From: a virus
Taxonomy: Duplodnaviria; Caudoviricetes
Direction: 5' to 3' (one strand)
Virus record (IMG/VR): IMGVR_UViG_3300035498_000371
Span: 32,001 to 96,000 of that record
Length of the DNA stretch: 64,000 nucleotides
In this document: positions 2,371 through 34,440 of the stretch, piece after piece
Layout of the letters: every line of letters starts with the position of its first letter
Numbering within the stretch: position 1 is the stretch's first letter
Translations under genes and position numbers: made by a program
The notes under the pieces: model-generated
Seen by the model: only the letters and a program-made list of their open reading frames with translations
What the model was told of the DNA's origin: nothing
The model's database searches: none

Positions 2371-5067
2371 ATGAAATATCTTTCTGTAGAACTTATAGGT
2401 TACGGTGGAATATATAATGGTTTAGGGCTAAACCAGATAAAAATAGATTTTACAAGATGCGTTCATAATAAAGTAATTATTAGAGGAAAAAATGGTTCTG
2501 GAAAATCTACTTTAATGAATGCCATAAATCCAAATCCAGATGGTAATGAATGTTTTATGCCTGGAGTTGAGGCTAGAAAAACATTGGTTTTATTCTGCAA
2601 TGGGATAATTTATACGATAAGATATATTCATCCAATAACTGGAAACGGCTCTAGAGCAACGACTAAGGGTTATATATCTAAGACTATAGATGGGCAAATG
2701 GTTGAATTAAATCCTAATGGAAATATTTCCTCATGCAAAGATATTCTTTACGATGAATTCTCTTTGGATTCGAATTATGTATCCTTATCCAAATTATCGT
2801 CAGAGAATAGAGGATTGGTTGATAGCAAACCAGCAGAGAGAAAGAAACTTTTAAATGGTATTATAAATATCTTAGACGTTTATAATGGAATATATAAGAA
2901 TCTTTCTAAGAAATCTAGCGCTTATAAACAGATCATCAATTCTTTAGTATATAAAATTGATAGTATTGGAGATGAAAATATGGTCACTGGAGCGCTAGCT
3001 AATCTTGAGGCTAGAATAGATGAATTAGAGTCAGATAAGTCTAAAGCAATAGAAGCATCAGCAGCGATCAAAGTAAAGATTGCTGATTATGAAGCTATAT
3101 TGAAAGAGAATAATTACGATTCAATTTTATCTGAATTAAGAGCTCTCGATAAAGATATAAAATCGCTGGATAATAATATTCAGAAACAATTGCAGGCTTA
3201 TGGTATAACTGATATATCTAAAGTTGATGATTTCTTAAATTATATCAACACCCAGATTACAAGTATTCAGCATGAGGTTGATTTATATAAGCAGATAATA
3301 CCTGAAAAATTGGCAGAGAGGGAAGCTGAATCTAAAGATCTTCAAAATAAAAGAGAAAAACTTAATTCATTGCAAAGCGAATATAATTATTTAGATATAA
3401 AGAAAGCGATGGAGAATGCAAGAGCGATCGTAAACGAGTACGATGCGGTCTTTGAGAGAATGGGTTTAACTCATATAGACCTTATTACAAGAGATGAGTA
3501 TGATTCCGCTATGGAATCATTAAATTATCTTCTAATGTCATCTAATGCGTTAACTTCAATGTACCAGATTGATGATATAAAATATGTAATTTATCATCAG
3601 CAAGAAATTACACTACAATCTTCTGATATTAAATCCCTTAAAGATCAACTGGATCGGTATAAGAATGAAAGATCAGAATTAGATAAACAAATTGCTATAT
3701 TCCAATCAAAGAGGGAAGTTGCTAATGAGTTAAATAATCGCCCATCTGGATGTAAGATTGATGATTGTCCTTACATAAAGAGCGCCGTAGATGCAAATAA
3801 TCAATATCCTGAAAGCGAATTGCAAATAATGTCTGCTAGATTGGAAGTCCTTAATTCTTCTATAGCAGATATTACTGCTAAGATAGATAAATATGAGACT
3901 TACTCTGCTATATTTACTCATATTAATTCTATCATAAGAGAGTTGAACTCTAAAATGAAATTTATTTCTAAGTTTCCTCTAAGAAAGGATTTTAAAGAAA
4001 CTTTTCTATATAGATTAGCAGAATTAGATCCATTTGATGATATAAGAGAATGCTACAAATACGTTGAGTATAGTAATATTTTAGACGAATATAAGATTGC
4101 CAAAGAACAACTTCATACATATGAAGTTGAGCATAAATTGTATGAGTCTAAGAATAGTATTATAGAATCATTAATTGATTCTATAAATGATATATCCAGG
4201 AAGACAGATGAATTAGCCCAACAGATTGAGCATTTAAATTCTCAAATATCTGAGAAGGAAATGAATTTAGAGGAATTGAAAACTCTTAAATCTAAAGTAG
4301 AATCTTTATCTATCAGCATCAATCAATCCTATAAACCATCGGTGGAAAGGCAGAATGAGTTATTGATATTGAAGAAATCACTAGACTCAAATACATCAGC
4401 GTTAGATGAACTTCATGCTAATCTTTCTATTGCCGATAATAATATTGGTTCTATATCTAGTGATATTAAGAATTTATCTTTAGAGAGAGATAAGCTTAGA
4501 CACAATTTATCACTGCTTGCTGACTATAAGCAAGAATATGCTGATTACAATAATAAATATTCTAAGATGGAGAAGATTAGATATTATTCATCCCCATCAA
4601 CTGGGATACAAACCTTATTCATGCAGTTATATATGAATAAGATTATCACTACAGCCAATGATCTTCTCTCTTTATTATTTGATGGAGAATTTATATTGCA
4701 GCCATTCATAATCAATGAAGCGGAGTTTAAGATTCCATGCGTTGGAAATGGTTTAATGCATGATGATATAAGCAGTATGTCTACAGCTCAAAAATCTATG
4801 ATATCAATGATATTATCGTTCTCTCTATTAAGACAATCATCAACTAAATATAATATTGTATTTGTAGATGAGATAGATGGCGGTCTTGATACGGGCAATA
4901 GGGCGTACTTTATTACATTACTGGATAGGCTTATGATGATGCTTCAATGTGAACAATGCTTTATCGTTAGTCATAATTCCGAATTAGATACTTCTATGGC
5001 TGATTTGATAGTGCTAAAAACAGATCCTGGAGAAACATATGGCGGTAACGTGATTTGGCATTATTGA
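2371..5067 (+). CDS. sbcC: SbcC/Rad50-like SMC ATPase
   Basis: Walker A GKNGSGKST, long coiled coils with central CKIDDCPY hook, signature MSTAQ, Walker B/D-loop FVDEIDGGLD, H-loop VSH. Confidence 0.92.
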   Translation: MKYLSVELIGYGGIYNGLGLNQIKIDFTRCVHNKVIIRGKNGSGKSTLMNAINPNPDGNECFMPGVEARKTLVLFCNGIIYTIRYIHPITGNGSRATTKGYISKTIDGQMVELNPNGNISSCKDILYDEFSLDSNYVSLSKLSSENRGLVDSKPAERKKLLNGIINILDVYNGIYKNLSKKSSAYKQIINSLVYKIDSIGDENMVTGALANLEARIDELESDKSKAIEASAAIKVKIADYEAILKENNYDSILSELRALDKDIKSLDNNIQKQLQAYGITDISKVDDFLNYINTQITSIQHEVDLYKQIIPEKLAEREAESKDLQNKREKLNSLQSEYNYLDIKKAMENARAIVNEYDAVFERMGLTHIDLITRDEYDSAMESLNYLLMSSNALTSMYQIDDIKYVIYHQQEITLQSSDIKSLKDQLDRYKNERSELDKQIAIFQSKREVANELNNRPSGCKIDDCPYIKSAVDANNQYPESELQIMSARLEVLNSSIADITAKIDKYETYSAIFTHINSIIRELNSKMKFISKFPLRKDFKETFLYRLAELDPFDDIRECYKYVEYSNILDEYKIAKEQLHTYEVEHKLYESKNSIIESLIDSINDISRKTDELAQQIEHLNSQISEKEMNLEELKTLKSKVESLSISINQSYKPSVERQNELLILKKSLDSNTSALDELHANLSIADNNIGSISSDIKNLSLERDKLRHNLSLLADYKQEYADYNNKYSKMEKIRYYSSPSTGIQTLFMQLYMNKIITTANDLLSLLFDGEFILQPFIINEAEFKIPCVGNGLMHDDISSMSTAQKSMISMILSFSLLRQSSTKYNIVFVDEIDGGLDTGNRAYFITLLDRLMMMLQCEQCFIVSHNSELDTSMADLIVLKTDPGETYGGNVIWHY

Positions 5068-21635: not shown

Positions 21636-22496
21636 TTAGAAATTGAAATGATCATAATAACTGTAGTCTTCTCCCTCTATATATCCACGATACGCTTCAG
21701 GAACTGCTCCAACATTCTGGAATGGTTGATCGCTATCGTAATAATCATTGAGGGTATTAGTTGATTGATTATAGAAACCAATAAATACTGTGTCAGGCAC
21801 AGAGAACTCCGTCTGATCTCCAACAAAATTGGTTATAGGTACATTATCAGGAATATTGTATTTCTGTCTATACGCCCTTTCTCCTAAAGGAGTATTTACA
21901 AGAGATTCAAATCTTGCTTTCTCTTCTGCTCTACGATTATCAATAAAGTCTTGCATCTGAATTCCGCCAGCTTTAATAGCTGCATTAAGATCTCTTTCTA
22001 TCTCATTATTGAGCTCTGACTGAGTATTGAAATGCTCTACGATTTCTACTGTATCATCATCATAGTAATTGATCTCTTCATCTACATCTTCATCTGTTCG
22101 TATAGAAGTCTTCCGAATTCCATATCTTTCAGCAAGATTGATTCCTTCATACCATACATAAAGAGCCATAAGCATAGAGAATACCTGATCATCATGGGTA
22201 GAAGCTGAGTGCTCTACTTTACCATTTCTCTTAATCTCCATTCCAAGTAACTCATTGTAAATGATTGGAGATATTATCTTGTCTTTATGCATTTCTACAC
22301 GTTCTATCAAGATATCAATAAGTAGCTTTCTGATATCTCTGGTTGAATTGAGACCGTATTCTTTTATTCTAACCTGATGCTTGTAAGCATGAACACCATC
22401 TTGTCTCTCTTCTACCACTTTATCTTTAATCTCATAATAGAGATTTCTCTTTAATCCCATTTTAAGAAGCTTAGATATAACTGTACTACCGTAACC
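21636..22496 (-). CDS. terL: Terminase large subunit, exon 2
   Basis: GYGSTVISKL continues VNVERNG of exon 1; HDDQVFS nuclease motif. Boundary uncertain by a few nt. Confidence 0.8.
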   Translation of the reverse strand, partial: GYGSTVISKLLKMGLKRNLYYEIKDKVVEERQDGVHAYKHQVRIKEYGLNSTRDIRKLLIDILIERVEMHKDKIISPIIYNELLGMEIKRNGKVEHSASTHDDQVFSMLMALYVWYEGINLAERYGIRKTSIRTDEDVDEEINYYDDDTVEIVEHFNTQSELNNEIERDLNAAIKAGGIQMQDFIDNRRAEEKARFESLVNTPLGERAYRQKYNIPDNVPITNFVGDQTEFSVPDTVFIGFYNQSTNTLNDYYDSDQPFQNVGAVPEAYRGYIEGEDYSYYDHFNF

Positions 22497-23571
22497 ATTT
22501 GTGTTTAGATATATACGCAACTATATACCCCATGGTTGATTCCATGCATCCCCGTTACAGGGAATGATCAGACTATACGTACATCCTTAGAATACCTAAG
22601 GAGCTGGATTTTTCTTCCGCCATTAGCTTGCGGTTTTACATTAAGGCTTTCGCCGCCCACGCAATGGGCCAGTCGTTAGACGTAATATTAAATTATTGCA
22701 CAATACGAACCATATTTCTATATATTTTCTTTCCTGTCCTATCGATCATATATCCAGCATATGGACCAAATGCTATTTTTCTACCATTACCGACCATATT
22801 CTTTAGACTTATTTCTTCATAACCTATCAAATCGGAAACTTCTGATCTTCCATTACAGACTATTCTATCTTCATCGTCATTATACACTTCATAAATATTG
22901 ACTATTTTTACAGACTTAGCTGGAGAGGATTTTCTATCTTCTCTAAAAGCCTGAGATATATTGTCTGATTGGGTTCCCCATTTTAAATTGGAAACGTGAT
23001 TATTAAGTTTATCGTTATCTTTATGCATAACTACTGGTAGATTATCTGGATTCGGAATGAATGTTTTAGCCACTAATCTATGTATTGATTCATTCTTTCT
23101 ATGCCCATCGTCGCAATCTTCTAATGCTGTTCTCAAATAACCAGAATTGCTTACAGCAGTTCTCATAGTATGACCGTTTTCGTTTATTACAATTCCAGAT
23201 TCATTTATTTTATATTTTCCATTATATCCTGGTATTTCTTTCATCATGATTCTATTTCCTCCTTAAACTTTTGATAGAGCAAAATGGCTATATCATATTA
23301 TTTAAGAAGTTAATATTATTGTGCGTTATTAATATTTTCGTAACTGCACGTTGGCTTGTTAATAGTAGCTGCAGGATTTAACCATACTACCATCCTTATA
23401 TCTTTTTTCTGCTTTCGCCGCATTCACGCTTACCTTTTGAGTTACGTTGTAGCGATATAAGGCTCTTGACCAATGAGTCGCAGTTTTAACACAGGAGAAC
23501 TAACAGCTTCCGCTATTAGCTGTGGTATTTAAACCGTATTCTTTATATTACTTTATACGGCTTTATTTCTC
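22497..23571 (-). ncRNA. Group I intron in terL
   Basis: R element GTCTAACGACTG, S element CGTATAGTC, P9 hairpins, P1 ACGGU/GCCGU; contains an HNH ORF. Confidence 0.85.
22693..23247 (-). CDS. Intron-encoded NUMOD4/HNH homing endonuclease
   Basis: KEIPGYNGKYKINESG, IHRLVAKTFIPNP, VMHKDNDKLNNHVSNLKWGT; own RBS aaggagg. Confidence 0.9.
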   Translation of the reverse strand: MMKEIPGYNGKYKINESGIVINENGHTMRTAVSNSGYLRTALEDCDDGHRKNESIHRLVAKTFIPNPDNLPVVMHKDNDKLNNHVSNLKWGTQSDNISQAFREDRKSSPAKSVKIVNIYEVYNDDEDRIVCNGRSEVSDLIGYEEISLKNMVGNGRKIAFGPYAGYMIDRTGKKIYRNMVRIVQ

Positions 23572-25053
23572 ACCGTTCCTTTCCACATTTACCACCGCGT
23601 TCGGCATCCAATTCTTTACAATGAATTCAATACATCTTGCTAGGTCTAATGTAGAAATGTAGTTACAGTTCAAGCATCCTAGAACTTTGGTTGTTAAAGA
23701 GTCTATAACAGTGATTGTCGAACTATCCTGTTTATAACCACCAGCAACGTCGACGCCGATGATAGCAGGATAAGTTCTTGTATCAGCCTGTAAGTAAGTT
23801 TCAAATCTATACTTACCAAGCAAATATACTTCAGATATTGGTTGCCTAAGTAATCCAGAAATTGTATCAAGATCTTCTTCTCTAAATGGAGAATTCTCAA
23901 CTCCAGTAGCCCACTCAAGAAGAATCTCACGTCTGATATCAGGCCATGAATTCTTAAGCAATCTACATACTTCCTGGAACCATTCCTCAGAACATCCAAG
24001 TTGCTGATATGTATAACGAATGTATACATAATCAGAATTGTTATTAGCGTTAATAATCTCCATAAGCTGTAGATATGATTTATCATACCAGCTTTCAGAG
24101 AATGGAGTTGCAGCCTCTTTCATAGCATAAGCTTCTTTTCCTTCAGGAGTTGTCATAAATCCTGGAGTTGTAGTTATTGTAATACCATAAGGGGCATGAT
24201 TGTTCTTTGCTATAGAAGAAGCAGTCTTATACGCAGGTGCACCATTCATATAAATAATATCATTAAATGGCAAGAAAGCGTACTCATCATACCACATCAA
24301 AACGAGAGTTTTACCCCTGAGTAATGATGCTGCTTTTGCTTTATTTGTAGCAGAAGCAAACGTTTTGATGGTATTGTTGTTATAAGGATTTACTACTTCC
24401 GTTGTATTATTCTTACCTTTATCTAATTTACCATCTGGAGTTATACGCTCTTTAAGAATAAGATATGGTGGTAATAAATCCCTCATATCTTTCATGGCTG
24501 TAAGGTTGTCTGTAGAACCAGCCATATTCTTATGCAAGAATGCCATTTTAGAGTTAGTAGTACCAAAGTTATATAAATAAAGATATCTTACAATTACAGC
24601 GGTTGTTTTTCCACGCTGACGTGGCTCCTCAAAGAATATATTTAAGTTTAATGAAGCACAAAAGTTATATGCTAAATTACCTCTATCGAGTTTGTAAGGC
24701 ATCGGTCCAGAACCAGTAGATGGTAACCTTACAACCTCCCTGATGAAATACCAATAGTTACATATACACTCTCTAAGGATCTTTTGTTTATAGTACACAT
24801 TAAGATTCGGATCATATGGATTAATACCATCAAGATCTGGATCTATAAGTGCAAGCATAAACTCATTATTCTTAATTCCAATGGATTTAAGATAATGGTG
24901 CATGTCTAGGAAACTTTTGTTTTTAGTCGTTTTCTGACTATAAACAGTTCTTATAGGTGGTGGTTGATGCATTTGAGGCGGTGGCATTTGTTGTCGCTGC
25001 ATCTGAGCATTAAATGGAATATAAGACGGAGTAACAATGTTCCCATAAGGCAT
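23572..25053 (-). CDS. terL: Terminase large subunit, exon 1
   Basis: Walker A PRQRGKT, Walker B LMWYDE, motif III TTTP, RNase H IIGVDVAGG; AACA-N6-TA at 25082..25093 (-). Confidence 0.9.
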
Positions 25054-25878: not shown

Positions 25879-27630
25879 TTATAGTTTAACAATATTAGAA
25901 TAATTCACTGAATCATTATCTAAACGATTCAATCCAATAGACTGTAATGGGAAGTTCTTTAATGAATCACTAATGATTTCTCCAAAGTCTACAAACTCTA
26001 ATACCCATTTTGGTACTGGGCTATCTAACGGTAATGCTATTACATTAACCTTAGAACCAAGAGTTGGAGAATCTAGTAATCTACATAACTTCTCATACTC
26101 TACTGGATAAAGATCTTTAATCTTGCTTACATTCTTCTTAGTAACATCGATCTTGATCTTTATAATAGAATTTCTTTCCTCAAGGTTTATTGCTGGCATA
26201 TCATCATCTCTCATTTCATTATAAATGAGGCACGCTACTATACCATTAATTTCAAGAGGATTCTTACCATACGAACTCATTGCAGCTACATTATCTGGTC
26301 GATAATATTTTGTTTCTCCGTTCATTATGCTATCATAAATACTGTTCTCCATCATAACTAATTTCTTCATAATAGCAATCTGATCAATATTATCTGCATT
26401 CATGATATCTTCGTAAAGAATCTCTTTGAACTCACTCTTAATATCGTCAGGAAGAGTAGATTTATCTATTGGTAATCCTGCTATGGCCAATCTACTACCC
26501 TCCGGTATTATATTTCCTTCCTGTAGCATTTGTAGCGATGCATAATTACGTCTATGGATTGTTAATAATGCTCTTAAGAAATAGAATTCGTTCTTCATCA
26601 CCATTCTGCATTTTGTTCCTTCGACATAGCTTCCTGTAAGTTTTGTATATTCATTCAAATAATCGACTACAAGAGCACTACATACGTAAGCTATGATATT
26701 TATAATTGAATACTTCAAAGAATCCTGAGGGATAAGTTTCGCAGGTTCAATATATCGATCCAGTTCGATAGTTTCATCTGTATAGAAATCATAATCAAGT
26801 CTTTGTTCTACTATCTCGCACATTACTCGTTTTTTATGATCTCCAAACTCATCTGGATCTGCAATATCAACCATATTAAATTTCTCTCTCTTAATCTTCA
26901 TAGGAATATTATAAACTTTATCCAGTACGAATCTATACCATGCGTCGAATGATACAATAGTACTATCTGTATCTACTATACAAACTGCGTCACGCTGCAT
27001 ATACTCTATTCTATCCAGCTTGTCTATATAGAAGTGAGGATAATATACATATTCCTTAATAAGATCTACAAGAATATCTAGTTCTTTTCTTATAGTCTTC
27101 GGTGGTTTATTAGGATTCATAAAGATATTAGGAGTAATCTTTTCCTTACCATCTTTACCCTCCTCGAATAATGGAGCACCGCCGAGATTACTAAGAATCT
27201 TAATAAGAAGATCTGTAACTACTGGAAGATCACAAAACGTATATAGATTATTCTTATAATATAATCTATTAATATCCTCCTGTGGAAGATCTCTTAGATA
27301 CTCCCATACCAAACCCATTTCCTTTTCGGTCGGTATCCACACTGCCATATCAGCAGTATTCATAAGCTTATAAAAACATTCTGCTACTGTAATATCCCTA
27401 TCCAGTATAGCAGAATCCAAACAATGACGATTATCTTTTTCATGCTCAACGTTATTTATAAACGTAATTACTTCATTTAAACTATTGAATTTTATATTAT
27501 TCGCCAATAAGGATTCAAATAAAGTAATACTGCATGATATATAAGATCTACCTTGTCTAGTAACTGCCTCTGCTACATATAGATTATAATACATAGACGT
27601 TGGAGCTCCTAGAACACCGTAAGTTGCGTT
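25879..27630 (-). CDS. polB: Family B DNA polymerase C-terminal subunit, exon 2
   Basis: Begins NATYGVLGAPTSMYYN; VTRQGR; motif C VDTDS; RRNYA. Confidence 0.9.
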   Translation of the reverse strand, partial: NATYGVLGAPTSMYYNLYVAEAVTRQGRSYISCSITLFESLLANNIKFNSLNEVITFINNVEHEKDNRHCLDSAILDRDITVAECFYKLMNTADMAVWIPTEKEMGLVWEYLRDLPQEDINRLYYKNNLYTFCDLPVVTDLLIKILSNLGGAPLFEEGKDGKEKITPNIFMNPNKPPKTIRKELDILVDLIKEYVYYPHFYIDKLDRIEYMQRDAVCIVDTDSTIVSFDAWYRFVLDKVYNIPMKIKREKFNMVDIADPDEFGDHKKRVMCEIVEQRLDYDFYTDETIELDRYIEPAKLIPQDSLKYSIINIIAYVCSALVVDYLNEYTKLTGSYVEGTKCRMVMKNEFYFLRALLTIHRRNYASLQMLQEGNIIPEGSRLAIAGLPIDKSTLPDDIKSEFKEILYEDIMNADNIDQIAIMKKLVMMENSIYDSIMNGETKYYRPDNVAAMSSYGKNPLEINGIVACLIYNEMRDDDMPAINLEERNSIIKIKIDVTKKNVSKIKDLYPVEYEKLCRLLDSPTLGSKVNVIALPLDSPVPKWVLEFVDFGEIISDSLKNFPLQSIGLNRLDNDSVNYSNIVKL

Positions 27631-28238
27631 CCGTTAACCTTATTTAATTAAAATAAGCGAGACTATATCTTCATCTTAGTAAGATGCCGTGCGCTTCCAT
27701 TTAAAGGGTTCTCACCTACCAGCATGTAATACTGGCCGTACTCCTGTAGACGAATTTCACGTCCCATATGGGGATAGTCGTTGAACTTCATTTGATATTT
27801 TACCTATATAATTAATAAAATGAATATAAAAATGCGCAACACTCACATGAGCCTATAAATTTATCGTAATAACGATCATAATAAGTTGTAGTATTATATG
27901 AGGCGCATTCATGAGAATCTGGCAGCCATTTCCATTTCTCATTATTTATTATTGCTGGTAGTAATTTATTATTTATTGAACTTTCAATATTATTATTATT
28001 CATAATTATGCCTCCCTTTTAAAATATCAAATATTAGCTGCTGATTAGACATTGTAATCGGATTTTAGCACCTTTAATAACTACGGTTATTATTAAAGGC
28101 TTTTATCTCAGCATGATCCATCTCTCTACTTGTTTCTGACTTTCGTCTCCATATAAATGGCAAGAGAGCATTAGCCTTTCCCAGCAATTCACACAGTAGT
28201 TTTTGCTATGCGTCACCGCATAACCCGCCTAGCCATTA
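27631..28238 (-). ncRNA. Group I intron in polB-C (608 nt)
   Basis: 5' site ...AAC GCU|UAA, 3' site ...UAACGG|AAC; R GTTCAACGACTA, S AAGATATAGTC; splicing restores motif B KLNANATYG. Confidence 0.9.
27812..28003 (-). pseudogene. Probable remnant of an intron homing endonuclease
   Basis: 63-aa ORF with strong RBS agggagg inside the intron; NEKWKWLP resembles a NUMOD4 start; no HNH core. Confidence 0.45.
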
Positions 28239-29451: not shown

Positions 29452-31086
29452 ATGGCAAACACAGTTGATAAGGTTATAGCAATTGCTAAAGCCGAAGTAG
29501 GTTATGTGGAGAAAGCTAGTAATAAGGATTTGTATGACAAGACCGCCAATGCAGGTAGTGCTAACTATACTAAGTACGGTTATGAGATGCACCAGCTCTA
29601 TCCATCAGTAATGGATTTCCCAGCAGCATGGTGTGATTGTTTTGTAGATTGGTGCTTCTACAAAGCATACGGAGTGTCTAACGCTAAAGCACTTCTTGGA
29701 GGTAACTTCGATGATTATACTGTAAATTCAGCACAACTCTATAAGAATAAGGGAGCTTATTATAAGTCAAATCCTCAGATTGGAGACCAGATTTTCTTCA
29801 AGAATTCATCTAGAATCTGCCACACGGGTTTAGTATATAACGTAGATTCTAATTACGTTTATACTGTTGAAGGAAATACATCGACTGCAGCTGGAGTAGT
29901 TGCAAATGGTGGCGGTGTAGCACTCAAGAAATATACTCTTAGTTATGCTAGTATTGATGGTTATGGAAGACCTAAATATGATACTGCTAGCACCACTACA
30001 TCAAGTGTAGCATCTACTCAGTCCACAGGAGTTGATGAAAAGACAATCTGGAATTATCTTATTGGTAAAGGATTGAACGCATTTGCCGCTGCAGGTCTTA
30101 TGGGCAATCTGTATGCTGAAAGTGGATTAAAACCAAATAACTTACAGAATACTTATGAGAAGAAACTTGGAATGACAGACGTGCAGTACACTGAAGCTGT
30201 AGATAATGGTTCTTATACAAACTTTGCTAAAGATGCTGCTGGTTATGGATTAGCTCAGTGGACTTATCATACTCGTAAACAGGGATTATTGGATCTCGCT
30301 AAATCTAAGAGCGTTTCTATCAGTAATCTCTCTATGCAGCTTGATTATTTATGGAGCGAATTGCAGGGTTATTCTACAGTAATTAAAACTCTCAAAGCAG
30401 CTACGTCGGTAAAAGAAGCTTCTGATGCGGTATTAACAGGATTTGAGAAACCTGCAGATACTAGTGATACTGTTAAAACAAAGAGGGCTGGATACGGTCA
30501 GGAATATTATAATAAATATTCTGGAGCATCTAATGCTACAGCTTCTACCACTACTGTAAATAATACTGTAAAGACAACTACCACTGCGGCTTCTTCATCT
30601 ACAGTTCCTGCAGTTGCTTCAGGAACACCTAATCTGAAATCTGGTTCTACTGGAGCACAGGTTACTTTACTTCAGCATGATTTAAATTATGTAATGAAGT
30701 CTGGACTTACGGTGGATGGAAGCTTTGGCGCTAAGACTAAAGCAGCTGTTATCGCATTCCAGAAGAAATATGGATTAACAGCAGATGGAATCTATGGCTC
30801 TAATTCTCAGAAGAAGATGGAAGCAGCCCTTAAAGGAAGTACAACTTCAGTTGTTCCTTCAGTAGCAGCTGGTTCTCCTACACTTAAGAAAGGAAGCAAG
30901 GGTGCTCAGGTTAAACTCTTACAGCAGGATCTTAATTATCTACTTAATAGTGGTTTAACTGTAGATGGAGACTTTGGAACTGCTACATATAATGCAGTAG
31001 TTGCATTCCAGAAGAAATATGGATTAACAGCAGATGGAAAGTATGGCCCAGCATCTTGCACTAAAATGAAATCCCTTCTTGGTTAA
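29452..31086 (+). CDS. Modular cell-wall hydrolase/endolysin (CHAP + phage tail lysozyme-like + two PG-binding domains)
   Basis: WCDCFV...HTGLV...EGN; AAGLMGNLYAESGL...GYGLAQWT; two LKxGS.G.QV..LQ..LN...DG.FG..T..AV.AFQ repeats; AACA-N6-TA at 29383..29394. Confidence 0.9.
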   Translation: MANTVDKVIAIAKAEVGYVEKASNKDLYDKTANAGSANYTKYGYEMHQLYPSVMDFPAAWCDCFVDWCFYKAYGVSNAKALLGGNFDDYTVNSAQLYKNKGAYYKSNPQIGDQIFFKNSSRICHTGLVYNVDSNYVYTVEGNTSTAAGVVANGGGVALKKYTLSYASIDGYGRPKYDTASTTTSSVASTQSTGVDEKTIWNYLIGKGLNAFAAAGLMGNLYAESGLKPNNLQNTYEKKLGMTDVQYTEAVDNGSYTNFAKDAAGYGLAQWTYHTRKQGLLDLAKSKSVSISNLSMQLDYLWSELQGYSTVIKTLKAATSVKEASDAVLTGFEKPADTSDTVKTKRAGYGQEYYNKYSGASNATASTTTVNNTVKTTTTAASSSTVPAVASGTPNLKSGSTGAQVTLLQHDLNYVMKSGLTVDGSFGAKTKAAVIAFQKKYGLTADGIYGSNSQKKMEAALKGSTTSVVPSVAAGSPTLKKGSKGAQVKLLQQDLNYLLNSGLTVDGDFGTATYNAVVAFQKKYGLTADGKYGPASCTKMKSLLG

Positions 31087-31111
31087 TCATATACCTACAA
31101 GATAAGTTGAT

Positions 31112-31135
31112 CAGAGGACGGGAAACTGTCCTCTG
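31112..31135 (+). terminator. Intrinsic terminator after lysin
   Basis: cagaggacg-ggaaac-tgtcctctg. Confidence 0.65.
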
Positions 31136-31156
31136 TAAACTTTTACAAATTAATAT

Positions 31157-31168
31157 AACAATCTGGTA
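31157..31168 (+). promoter_or_regulatory. Late-type promoter for the RNA cluster
   Basis: AACAatctggTA 10 nt before the tRNA-like element. Confidence 0.6.
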
Positions 31169-31178
31169 ATGATGTAGA

Positions 31179-31251
31179 GTTCTGATAGCTCAAAGGGATA
31201 GAGCAAAGTATTTTTATATTTGATAATAGGTCCGAATCCTATTTCAGAAAT
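31179..31251 (+). tRNA. Degenerate tRNA / tRNA-like element
   Basis: Acceptor ttctga/tcagaa, D arm gctc/gagc, T arm atagg-tccgaat-cctat; irregular AU-rich anticodon arm and TCC instead of TTC. Confidence 0.55.
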
Positions 31252-32000
31252 TTTGCCGTTTATAAAACAGAAGCACCGTTGATTACGGCAAATGCGGTTT
31301 GAGTTGGCAGCCCGATATAGAGGCTGCGTGTTAAGTGAGTTGCAACCGCAATATATTAGGTGCTAGCCGTGGGACTTTCTCACCGTTCGGAATAATACTT
31401 GTGCTATGATGAAGCGGCCGCGAGGATAAGCAGGTGCGCGATGGAAGGCAAAGGATAACACCGAGATGCGCCAACGTAGAGTGCGTCTAGATAATTCGCG
31501 ATAATATTCTAGTTCAATCTAGCCGGTCAGCGTGTCACAGCGCTGATCGGTATTCCTTCGTTTTGCTGAATTCCCCGTTCTAGGCAAACGAAGATCTCCC
31601 ATGTTATACTCTCAATATGAGTACCTGTTAACATGATTGTGCAGAGTTCATCTGCTGCGAAATGAAAACGATTTGGGATGCCCAATGGAATAGCATATTA
31701 GATAAAGAGATCTTCTATGTTCCCAAGTTGGTAGCCGCTTATGCGTATAAGGGCGGTATAATAATAAGGATTGGCGTTGGCTTGAAACGTACAAGCTATG
31801 GGGTGGTTGAAGGAAATACACTGGTAAGTGCCTAGTAAATGTGTGCTAGAGTCAGTAATGAATTTCCTAAGGTTACTAATGACCGCTATTAAGCCGAGAG
31901 TGGTGGATCGGTGATGCCTGCAGGTGAGGATGATGGAGTTGTTGGAAGGGAAAGATGGATTGCGTTGTAATCGGCTGTCTGTGTGTAACCTGCAGGATGC
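31252..32000 (+). ncRNA. Putative large structured non-coding RNA (~750 nt)
   Basis: No ORF of 60 aa or more, visibly GC-richer than the flanks, at least 10 inverted repeats, flanked by tRNA-like elements. Confidence 0.6.
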
Positions 32001-32073
32001 GTACCATTAGCTCAGTTGGTAGAGCACATGACTTTTAATCATGGTGTCGAGGGTTCAACTCCCTCATGGTACA
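32001..32073 (+). tRNA. tRNA-Lys (TTT), no encoded CCA
   Basis: gtaccat/atggtac acceptor, gctc/gagc D arm, catga-ctTTTaa-tcatg anticodon arm, gaggg-ttcaact-ccctc T arm. Confidence 0.95.
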
Positions 32074-32110
32074 TTAAGACTACTATTTTTGTTGCCGTAT
32101 TTCAAATCCA

Positions 32111-32134
32111 GCCCAGTGGTTAATTCCACTGGGC
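32111..32134 (+). terminator. Terminator hairpin after the RNA cluster
   Basis: gcccagtgg-ttaatt-ccactgggc. Confidence 0.65.
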
Positions 32135-32256
32135 GCTCCTTTCGGTTTCATTTTGGGAATTATTGAGCCCGAAACAATTTAATATATAAAAGATTTTCCA
32201 TTATATATTATAAAGGAGAATAGTAAAGGCAAATAAGTATAAAGGAGACGATTACT

Positions 32257-34440
32257 ATGGCAGAAGAACTTACAATCGTAACGGAACCGTTACAAAATTT
32301 TAAGAATTATTTTGTCTATGCAGATAATGTAAAGACAGGTAAACAAATCACAGTTAATGTCCCAACGGATATAACTGCTACTAATGTGGATGACCACATT
32401 ATTGCTATCTCTAATATATTGAAAGATGGTATTGAAACTCCATATGTACACGATACGAAGATTACAATCTCATGGGGAGGAGATCTTTGGTGTGAATTAT
32501 CGTTTATCGATTATTGGTTTTCTTTATTTATGTGGAGTATGGTATTAAAAACAGGGGGAGAAATTAGACCTAAGCATATCTTCTGGGGTACTGAATTGAA
32601 GAGGAAGAATATTAAGACATTCATTGATAGATTCGTACTGACGATTGAGAATAAAATCAATATTGGTAATTATGAACTCAATAATATCATTGCTGATGGT
32701 ACATGGAATTTCTCTAATATAGAACCATTCTCATTTTATCTGGCAAATACTATTAATAATGAGGATGATATTGAGTTAATGAAGAAATGCCCAGAGTATT
32801 ATGATTATCTTCATATGTCTTTCGCCAACGTTCCATTTAGTGATGTAAAAGATATTGGCCAGGAGATAACCAATAAGACTATAGATATTATTAAGGATTC
32901 TAAGAAATATCTTGGGTATGAGCATGGATTAACGAATTCATTCAGAGCATCTGAAGCTATCAACCCAAGACAGTATAAGGAGTCAAGAATCAATATTGGT
33001 ACCAAGTCTATTTATGATAAAGTATTTCCATACGTTATTGATCAGTCGTTTAGTAATGGTGGTGTAAATAGACCATTGTATTATTATATTGAATCTAGCA
33101 CGGCAAGAACAGCGCAGATCATGTCAAAGACAAATGTCGGAGATTCTGGTGATTTTGCTAGATTGCTTGGATTGAATAATACAGATACAATTCTTAATCC
33201 TGTAGCAGCATACAAGTGCATGTCTCGCCATTTTGTTAAATATGAGATTAAGAGCCCTAAGCATTTAAGTATGATTAAGAATCGTTATTATAGATTCAAT
33301 ATCTTAGGAATGGAATATCTTATCAATGATAAAGACGATTCATTAATCGGCAAGACAGTATATCTTAGATCTCCAATGACATGCGCTAGCTTATCAAGCG
33401 GTCATGGAATCTGTAGTCGTTGCTATGGAGATCTTTATTATACCAATAAAGATATTAACGTTGGTAAGATTGCTGCAGAAATTCTTTCATCAATCTTAAC
33501 TCAGACTCTTCTTTCTGCAAAACATCTTTTGGAAACAAAGATTATTAAGACTAAGTGGAATAAAGAGTTTGAAGAGCTTTTTGATATAGACATAAACTGT
33601 ATCTCTCTTATACAGGATATTGAGGATACGATTCCAGACTTGAGGAAGTATACACTTGTTATTGATCCAGATAATGTAAATCTGGTAAATGATGAAGAAG
33701 ATACGGTTAAGTATGATGATGACGGAAATATGATTCAGGAAGATTCTATCATGTATAACGAGTACATCACATATTTCTATATCAAATCTCCAAATGGAGT
33801 AATAACGAAGTTTGGTTCGGAGCAGGATGAGCCACTTTATATCTCCAAAGATCTTAATAGTATTATTAGGAAGCGTGGAAATGCAACTAATGATGATGCT
33901 AAGGTTAATATCCCAATGAATCTGCTAGTTGATTCTCAATTGTTCTATATTAAAATCAATAATAATGAGATCTCTAAGACTATGAATGATATTATCAACG
34001 TCATCAATAAGTCTGAGGTTACTGGTAATATGACTAAAGATGAAGCTCTTCAGTCTATTGTCGATCTTGTTATCGAAGGTGGTTTGGATATAGATTCGGT
34101 TCATCTTGAAGTAATCTTAGCTAACCAGATAGTTGACGCTAAAGATATCTTAAAGAAACCTAACTGGAACGATCCTGCAACACAGTACAAGATGTTTACG
34201 CTTAATCAGGCGTTAACGAATAATCCATCTGTAATTATATCATTGCTGTATAAAGATCTTAATAAGACTTTGTACAACCCTCTTACGTTTACTAAGAATG
34301 CGCCTAGCTTTTTCGATCTGTTCTTCTCAGAGCAGCCTCAGGTTTATATGTCTGATGAGATATTAGTAGATGCAGAAGATATAAATATTAGAGACCGTAG
34401 CAAGACTATAGAGATGGTTAAGATAGTCGATAAGAAATAA
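32257..34440 (+). CDS. rpoC: RNA polymerase beta' C-terminal subunit (probably of the non-virion RNAP)
   Basis: Bridge-helix region ARTAQIMSKTNVGDSGDFARLL, Zn site RSPMTC...ICSRCYG, trigger loop TQTLLSAKH, IDSVHLEVILANQ; TATATTAT at 32204..32211. Confidence 0.9.
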   Translation: MAEELTIVTEPLQNFKNYFVYADNVKTGKQITVNVPTDITATNVDDHIIAISNILKDGIETPYVHDTKITISWGGDLWCELSFIDYWFSLFMWSMVLKTGGEIRPKHIFWGTELKRKNIKTFIDRFVLTIENKINIGNYELNNIIADGTWNFSNIEPFSFYLANTINNEDDIELMKKCPEYYDYLHMSFANVPFSDVKDIGQEITNKTIDIIKDSKKYLGYEHGLTNSFRASEAINPRQYKESRINIGTKSIYDKVFPYVIDQSFSNGGVNRPLYYYIESSTARTAQIMSKTNVGDSGDFARLLGLNNTDTILNPVAAYKCMSRHFVKYEIKSPKHLSMIKNRYYRFNILGMEYLINDKDDSLIGKTVYLRSPMTCASLSSGHGICSRCYGDLYYTNKDINVGKIAAEILSSILTQTLLSAKHLLETKIIKTKWNKEFEELFDIDINCISLIQDIEDTIPDLRKYTLVIDPDNVNLVNDEEDTVKYDDDGNMIQEDSIMYNEYITYFYIKSPNGVITKFGSEQDEPLYISKDLNSIIRKRGNATNDDAKVNIPMNLLVDSQLFYIKINNNEISKTMNDIINVINKSEVTGNMTKDEALQSIVDLVIEGGLDIDSVHLEVILANQIVDAKDILKKPNWNDPATQYKMFTLNQALTNNPSVIISLLYKDLNKTLYNPLTFTKNAPSFFDLFFSEQPQVYMSDEILVDAEDINIRDRSKTIEMVKIVDKK

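Follow-up and report, generated by a model that had tools for sequence, protein, structure and literature searches.

The window analysed here is a 64,000-nucleotide stretch (positions 32,001–96,000) of the viral record IMGVR_UViG_3300035498_000371, which comes from an AR9-like jumbo phage (record 238,843 nt, GC 34%). At window positions 31251–32000 lies an element of about 750 nt that we read, with a probability of roughly 0.93, as encoding a large structured non-coding RNA (ncRNA) outside Rfam. A preliminary description of the window, made from its letters alone, had proposed either a member of the GOLLD or ROOL class or a new large ncRNA at this place. The second branch was borne out by covariation, by the score of a covariance model (CM) built without the window, and by the distribution of the family, whereas membership in GOLLD or ROOL found no CM match for any member, and the end topology of ROOL differs.

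Gene neighbourhood of the RNA locus

The RNA occupies the longest gap between open reading frames (ORFs) of at least 80 aa in the window (31087–32256), and all features of the locus and its flanks described below lie on the plus strand. It is bracketed by a decayed tRNA (31180–31250), detected as a 29-bit tRNA-like match, and by a tRNA-Lys(UUU) at 32001–32073, the only standard tRNA of the genome. The GC content of the locus was 0.42–0.49 against 0.34 genome-wide, which confirmed the GC-richer, gene-free stretch between two tRNA shapes that had been described before. The earlier wording "ORF-free" held in that no ORF exceeds 57 aa and none is conserved among the homologues.

Upstream lies an endolysin-like gene (29452–31086) with CHAP, phage lysozyme 2, and peptidoglycan-binding domains, followed by a terminator-like hairpin with a T-run (31112–31144), which would close its transcript and whose stem covaries in relatives. 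The gene downstream (32257–34440) is homologous to that for the beta′ subunit of the non-virion RNA polymerase (RNAP) of AR9; it has its own AR9-type early promoter motif (32200–32212) and is read as a separate unit. This AT-rich motif, which matches the AR9 early promoter, was also seen at six other intergenic sites of the source genome, always 32–66 nt before the start codon. The gene order of DNA polymerase, small gene, RNAP, and helicase is as in AR9, and phages with 80–84% identical RNAP keep the gene order and have a gap of roughly 1 kb at the same place. In this clade, the endolysin gene and the RNA were inserted together between a 176-aa gene and the RNAP gene. Since both are missing at this site in related phages with 60–67% RNAP identity, the endolysin gene, the RNA, and the tRNAs constitute a clade-specific insertion. 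The closest relatives of the CHAP domain belong chiefly to Lachnospiraceae and other Clostridia, which weakly hints at a Clostridial host.

Conservation and covariation

The comparison set comprised nine distinct sequences from four lineages, namely eight long RNAs (the window and seven homologues) and the short RNA L165 described below. The long RNAs measure 676–750 nt (676–710 nt in the sister phages) and fall into three lineages with 53–61% identity between them. An unbiased column-pair scan detected 11 helices of at least 5 bp with two-sided changes, compared with 1.6 ± 1.4 in column shuffles (0/200), and 26 two-sided pairs compared with 1.8 in the shuffles. In the fitted alignment of the 3′ half, 24 of 52 pairs changed on both sides and 99% of the cells paired, against 35–49% with slid partners; with few lineages and an alignment fitted to the model, these pair counts are not p-values. 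A CM of the 3′ half built without the window scored the window at 125 bits. The covariation in homologues that the preliminary description had named as a check was accordingly present, with helices kept by compensatory changes and two covarying pseudoknots.

All eight stems of the preliminary description were located in the sequence, at 31252–59/31285–92, 31293–99/31344–50 around 31307–12/31322–27, 31523–32/31541–50, 31556–63/31586–93, 31600–06/31629–35 around 31607–11/31619–23, 31673–78/31721–26, 31780–84/31792–96, and 31917–25/31988–96. The window RNA contains three perfect stems of at least 8 bp, where 0.46 were expected (6 of 300 shuffles). Its minimum free energy (MFE), taken alone, was not significant (z −1.07 and −0.54); two homologue z-scores were −4.0 and −5.2. 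The term "highly structured" is consequently upheld by the covariation in homologues and not by the window sequence alone, which is only modestly above chance, and we regard covariation as the decisive evidence for structure.

Domain architecture of the RNA

Comparison of the homologues showed a fold of several domains that includes two or more pseudoknots; its 3′ core is conserved, and its 5′ and linker parts vary. The variable 5′ domain (31252–31383; 10% invariant columns, aligned by eye) contains helix P1 (31252–59/31285–92), the loop of which (31272–77) pairs with 31359–64 as pseudoknot 1; the paired sequence is wholly different in L023, in a region aligned by eye only. The conserved middle domain (31384–31554) comprises helix 31386–90/31461–65 and the hairpins 31487–91/31508–12 and 31523–32/31541–50. 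The former hairpin carries a 16-nt invariant loop, the longest invariant run of the long members, with the palindrome UCGCGA at 31495–31500. It is followed by a variable linker with lineage-specific hairpins (31555–31669; 10% invariant).

The 3′ core (31670–31916), which is shared with an apparently unrelated phage, contains the helices 31670–78/31721–29 and 31693–97/31716–20 as well as a multiloop (31775–79/31912–16) holding the hairpin 31780–96 and an arm composed of 31802–09/31880–87 (two-sided change at 3 of 8 pairs) and 31811–17/31862–68 (4 of 7). In pseudoknot 2, the bulge of helix 31670–78/31721–29 pairs through 31682–86 with 31770–74, with two-sided change at 2 of 5 pairs. An early pairing of 31770–75 with 31851–56 did not covary and was dropped. 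The terminal domain (31917–31996) is a 9-bp helix (31917–25/31988–96; two-sided change at 8 of 9 pairs) around a G-rich strand, with an AGUA/GAG loop-E-like junction that is altered in the window. Four GG tracts inside this helix are common to all eight long members (4.7% of shuffles), absent from L165, and could form a two-tier quadruplex, a lead without strong statistical backing.

A distant short member and the distribution of the family

A motif scan found the short member L165 (45.7 bits, E 6e-11) in a 268-kb phage that is apparently unrelated to the source phage and in which no homologue of the AR9-type RNAP gene was found. This RNA of about 330 nt, compared with about 700 nt for the long form, retains the 3′ core helices, including a two-sided change in pseudoknot 2, and has no middle domain, palindrome, or GG tracts. 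Because L165 keeps the core without the middle domain, the family can be described as a mobile conserved core with optional 5′ additions. The compact pseudoknotted core spans about 170–250 nt and holds 64 columns that are invariant over the four lineages, many of them unpaired.

The L165 RNA has a sigma70-like promoter and sits between two tRNA-shaped elements with inserts, ahead of a tRNA-Gln, an RNase Z gene scoring above the NCBIfam cut-off, an RNA ligase gene, and a transfer-messenger RNA (tmRNA). The tRNA shapes (L165 1112–1250 and 1573–1692) have acceptor and T arms, with several extra hairpins replacing the D/anticodon region, and no Rfam match. The stretch L165 2881–5963 forms an RNA-repair island of RNase Z, a weak tRNA-like element (3948–4015), an RLIG1-type RNA ligase, and the tmRNA.

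Further searches gave no additional members. A blastn search against 50,697 phages returned only tRNA or chance matches, and several pattern scans returned nothing or chance matches only. The family CM had no match in the related jumbo phages G001 and G002 (60–63% RNAP identity), in AR9, LPJP1, MarsHill, phiR1-37, and BpSp, or in 151 genomes of the family of one Lachnospiraceae genome. A motif scan of 401 genomes of the class of this Lachnospiraceae genome yielded chance matches only, with the candidate L186 falling inside a coding sequence.

Elsewhere in the window, the family B DNA polymerase gene is split at 27595–28235 on the minus strand, where the L023 homologue is a single 723-aa ORF; the split is probably a self-splicing intron of about 0.6 kb, without an Rfam match at gathering score. 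A terminase-like ORF ending at 23563 also seems interrupted (22490–23580, with a gap at 23248–23562).

Comparison with known RNA families

The Rfam scan suggested in the preliminary description (GOLLD, ROOL, OLE, raiA, tmRNA, RNase P) gave no family match for the RNA; at E up to 10, only the tRNAs matched at the locus, and the homologues likewise had no family match. The exclusion of tmRNA, RNase P, and group I introns proposed earlier was upheld. The combination of tRNA-like ends with a tag reading frame that marks a tmRNA was not found in the RNA, and the L165 phage has a separate true tmRNA. The locus, the homologues, and L165 had no match to the RNase P models of Rfam or to the P4 consensus. 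No Rfam core of a group I or group II intron matched, and the flanking genes and tRNAs are whole. A hepatitis delta virus (HDV)-like or theta ribozyme was rejected, as its candidate P1 (31770–75/31851–56) showed no two-sided change and clashes with covarying helices. A 23S rRNA peptidyl-transferase mimic, a Shine–Dalgarno decoy, and a T-box-like UGGN pairing with tRNA ends were also rejected, the short motifs being too weakly conserved.

GOLLD is a large (700–830 nt) ornate phage RNA next to tRNAs, with conserved 3′ and variable 5′ domains and expression tied to lysis (PMC12286853, PMC12990946). The present RNA resembles it as a large ornate phage RNA beside tRNAs with the same conserved-3′/variable-5′ plan, but it is found in jumbo phages of the lytic AR9 type, where a phage late promoter precedes it, and its 3′ core is able to stand alone at about 330 nt. 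The GOLLD model RF02032 had no match at the locus (E up to 10) or in the homologues, a result obtained without a GOLLD positive control, as none was found in LBR48, and with a model that spans only 416 positions; GOLLD was compared by CM score and descriptions.

ROOL, which occurs in gut Firmicutes and in phages of these bacteria, is a large RNA with pseudoknots that lies next to tRNAs (PMC5737381), and the present RNA shares its size, its position, and its several pseudoknots and multistem junctions in a different topology. Whereas the ends of ROOL close in a long P1, the domains here stand in series, with no end-to-end helix common to the members and with local helices at both ends. The ROOL model RF03087 had no match at the locus or in the homologues, with the pMP118 positive control scoring 130 bits, and in the reciprocal test the CM and the hidden Markov model (HMM) of the present family missed true ROOL. 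OLE and raiA are likewise large ornate RNAs, of Clostridia-type bacteria, but theirs are chromosomal, and the present RNA has no Rfam match. As judged from these comparisons, the RNA is a family outside Rfam among the known kind of large ornate phage RNAs, GOLLD-like in context and plan and not filed as a member.

Promoter, tRNA brackets, and expression

The motif AACA-N6-TA at 31157–31168, with a predicted start at 31168, fits the AR9 late promoter consensus AACA-N6-TA/G (PMC5312081). It is kept in L023, L030, L049, L052, and L057 and is one base longer in L056, which agrees with the late promoter proposed upstream in the preliminary description; in the source genome, the motif is about 2.5-fold denser in non-coding DNA. 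Behind tRNA-Lys, a 9-bp hairpin at 32111–32134 is a probable terminator or 3′ protection. The terminator claimed there before stands as far as the hairpin is present and covaries in L023 and L052, but a clean U-tract is missing, and the hairpin was not among the called terminators. One lineage has a helix-turn-helix gene in place of this hairpin (L030 5559–5882, L049 6579–6899, L056 5575–5889).

As the 5′ tRNA, L030 and L052 carry Asn(GUU) and L049, L056, and L057 carry Arg(ACG), whereas its anticodon arm is decayed in the window and in L023/L029. The D and T arms and the 12-bp acceptor/T stack (6 + 6 bp) are kept with compensatory changes, and tRNA-Lys is intact in all sister homologues. This pattern of switched or decayed identity with a kept elbow and stack fits selection for recognition by a processing enzyme, not for decoding. 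In tRNA punctuation, a tRNA shape with an intact elbow and acceptor/T stack marks the end of a neighbouring RNA, as in mascRNA-like marks, and the use of RNase Z on CCA-less tRNAs is Firmicute practice. Neither flanking tRNA encodes CCA; CCA-less tRNA precursors are the type of substrate that RNase Z takes, and the enzyme has a role in such tRNA-shaped processing (PMC7479834). What differs here is that a real tRNA is caught in relatives at stages of decay into a mark, while the cutting is inferred. We propose that the 5′ tRNA shape is an RNase Z mark setting the 5′ end of the RNA and that tRNA-Lys is an RNase P mark setting its 3′ end. The release by tRNA processing at both ends that the preliminary description put forward is indirectly supported by the decay with kept elbow and stack, the missing CCA, and the L165 flanks with RNase Z, and tRNA-directed release appears likely.

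Contigs from RNA libraries of three gut metatranscriptome studies cover 31266–31523 and 31575–31974 at 98–100% identity, and their variants T31804C and A31345G preserve the respective base pairs. For the flanking genes, two runs had no near-identical contig, and one run had a depth of 2–4.5, compared with 8–19 on the RNA. The RNA is probably expressed. Contig edges lie near the predicted RNA ends (two runs begin at 31266–68 and two end at 31974), a weak hint at a processed RNA. The variants T31739C and T31742C from two RNA runs strengthen a hairpin at 31734–31757, the loop region of which becomes a perfect 8-nt palindrome that is not conserved in other lineages. Freshwater DNA runs contained mostly tRNA words and one 151-nt piece on the RNA (X8), and they were left out of any inference on habitat.

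Proposed function and rival explanations

In the mechanism that we propose, the phage non-virion RNAP would transcribe the RNA late from 31168, giving a precursor of leader, tRNA-like element, RNA, tRNA-Lys, and hairpin. Cuts by RNase Z behind the 5′ tRNA shape, which lacks CCA, and by RNase P ahead of tRNA-Lys would free a stable trans-acting RNA of about 31251–32000. Late in infection, copies of this RNA may join through conserved loops to build a scaffold or cage without protein. Such an oligomeric scaffold is the function that we tentatively favour, by analogy with GOLLD and ROOL, phage RNAs that lie beside tRNAs and assemble by means of kissing loops into cages of RNA alone. The only 6-nt palindrome common to all eight long members is UCGCGA in the 16-nt invariant loop, which fits a symmetric bridge; the bridges of GOLLD, ROOL, and OLE are symmetric kissing loops.

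Several points weigh against this picture. A shared palindrome arises in 25% of column shuffles, a switch from one palindrome to another was not seen among the members, the short L165 version does not have it, and part of the palindrome loop could pair instead with the invariant 31859–64. A large RNA need not form a cage, as the comparably large raiA is monomeric. The RNA is dispensable, as the more distant jumbo phages searched do not have it. Regarding the RNA gene itself, the relatedness of only nine distinct sequences in four lineages inflates the pair counts and leaves them below R-scape-level power, and the contigs, from runs selected for containing this stretch, are silent on strand, ends, and level.

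The RNA may instead work as a monomer that is delivered together with tRNA-Lys(UUU) and serves as a decoy or ligand for host factors of translation or defence, binding ribosomes, an anticodon nuclease, or an RNA-binding protein. We consider this unlikely, although the only standard tRNA of the phage is intact and, by prediction, always in the same transcript, the many invariant unpaired runs could contact proteins, the L165 version lies in an RNA-repair/translation island, and GOLLD pulled down ribosomes (PMC12286853). Rfam searches revealed no mimicry of rRNA, tRNA, or another family, and no partner gene travels with the RNA besides the endolysin and the tRNA; an anticodon-nuclease decoy in particular fits the 5′ tRNA poorly, because the anticodon arm would be expected to be kept. 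A new ribozyme or a new ligand-binding domain in the 3′ core, with accessory surroundings, would suit the occurrence of the core alone in an apparently unrelated phage and its invariant, often unpaired columns. This reading seems improbable given that RNase P, group I/II introns, and every self-cleaving family gave no match, the helix required for the HDV/theta-like reading did not covary, and the RNA does not lie within a gene. Membership in GOLLD or ROOL with a divergence too great for the Rfam models to detect, suggested by the same context, size, and plan and by the shortness of the GOLLD model, is quite improbable in view of the missing matches at E up to 10 for any member, the absent P1 and other ROOL landmarks, and the failed reciprocal searches.

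A role in packaging or in the virion, as for the prohead RNA of phi29, with synthesis late alongside the lysis and structural genes, would agree with the late promoter, the site behind the endolysin gene, and the candidate self-pairing loop. It is very improbable, however, since related jumbo phages that share the core genes do not have the RNA, and the L165 copy has a sigma70-like promoter and comes from a phage of another kind. The weak MFE z-scores of the window and the introns elsewhere in the phage would be compatible with a structured spacer, an intron remnant, or a cis element serving tRNA-Lys expression alone; this is hardly credible given that covariation is dense across the four lineages, with invariant loops and pseudoknots, that the RNA was transferred as a unit to another phage, and that flanking exons are lacking. 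Returning to the favoured scaffold, its most ambitious form is distinctly unlikely: a third independent class of phage RNA nanocage beside GOLLD and ROOL, which would travel as a cassette with tRNA brackets from one jumbo phage to another, unrelated one. In this form, the minimal 3′ core would function by itself, and the long RNA would have in addition a palindromic kissing loop and a two-tier G-quadruplex enclosed by a helix.

Significance of the family

To our knowledge, bacteria and phages have few large ornate RNAs, none of them with an established function. Within the limits of few sequences from uncultured phages, the present RNA adds a structurally distinct family with natural short (about 330 nt) and long (about 700 nt) forms suited to in vitro transcription and cryo-electron microscopy. 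The series of Asn, Arg, and decayed forms at the 5′ tRNA suggests why such RNAs adjoin tRNAs, namely that the tRNA shape may be retained as a processing mark. The family also bears on a question raised in PMC12286853, whether large phage RNAs form cages as a rule.
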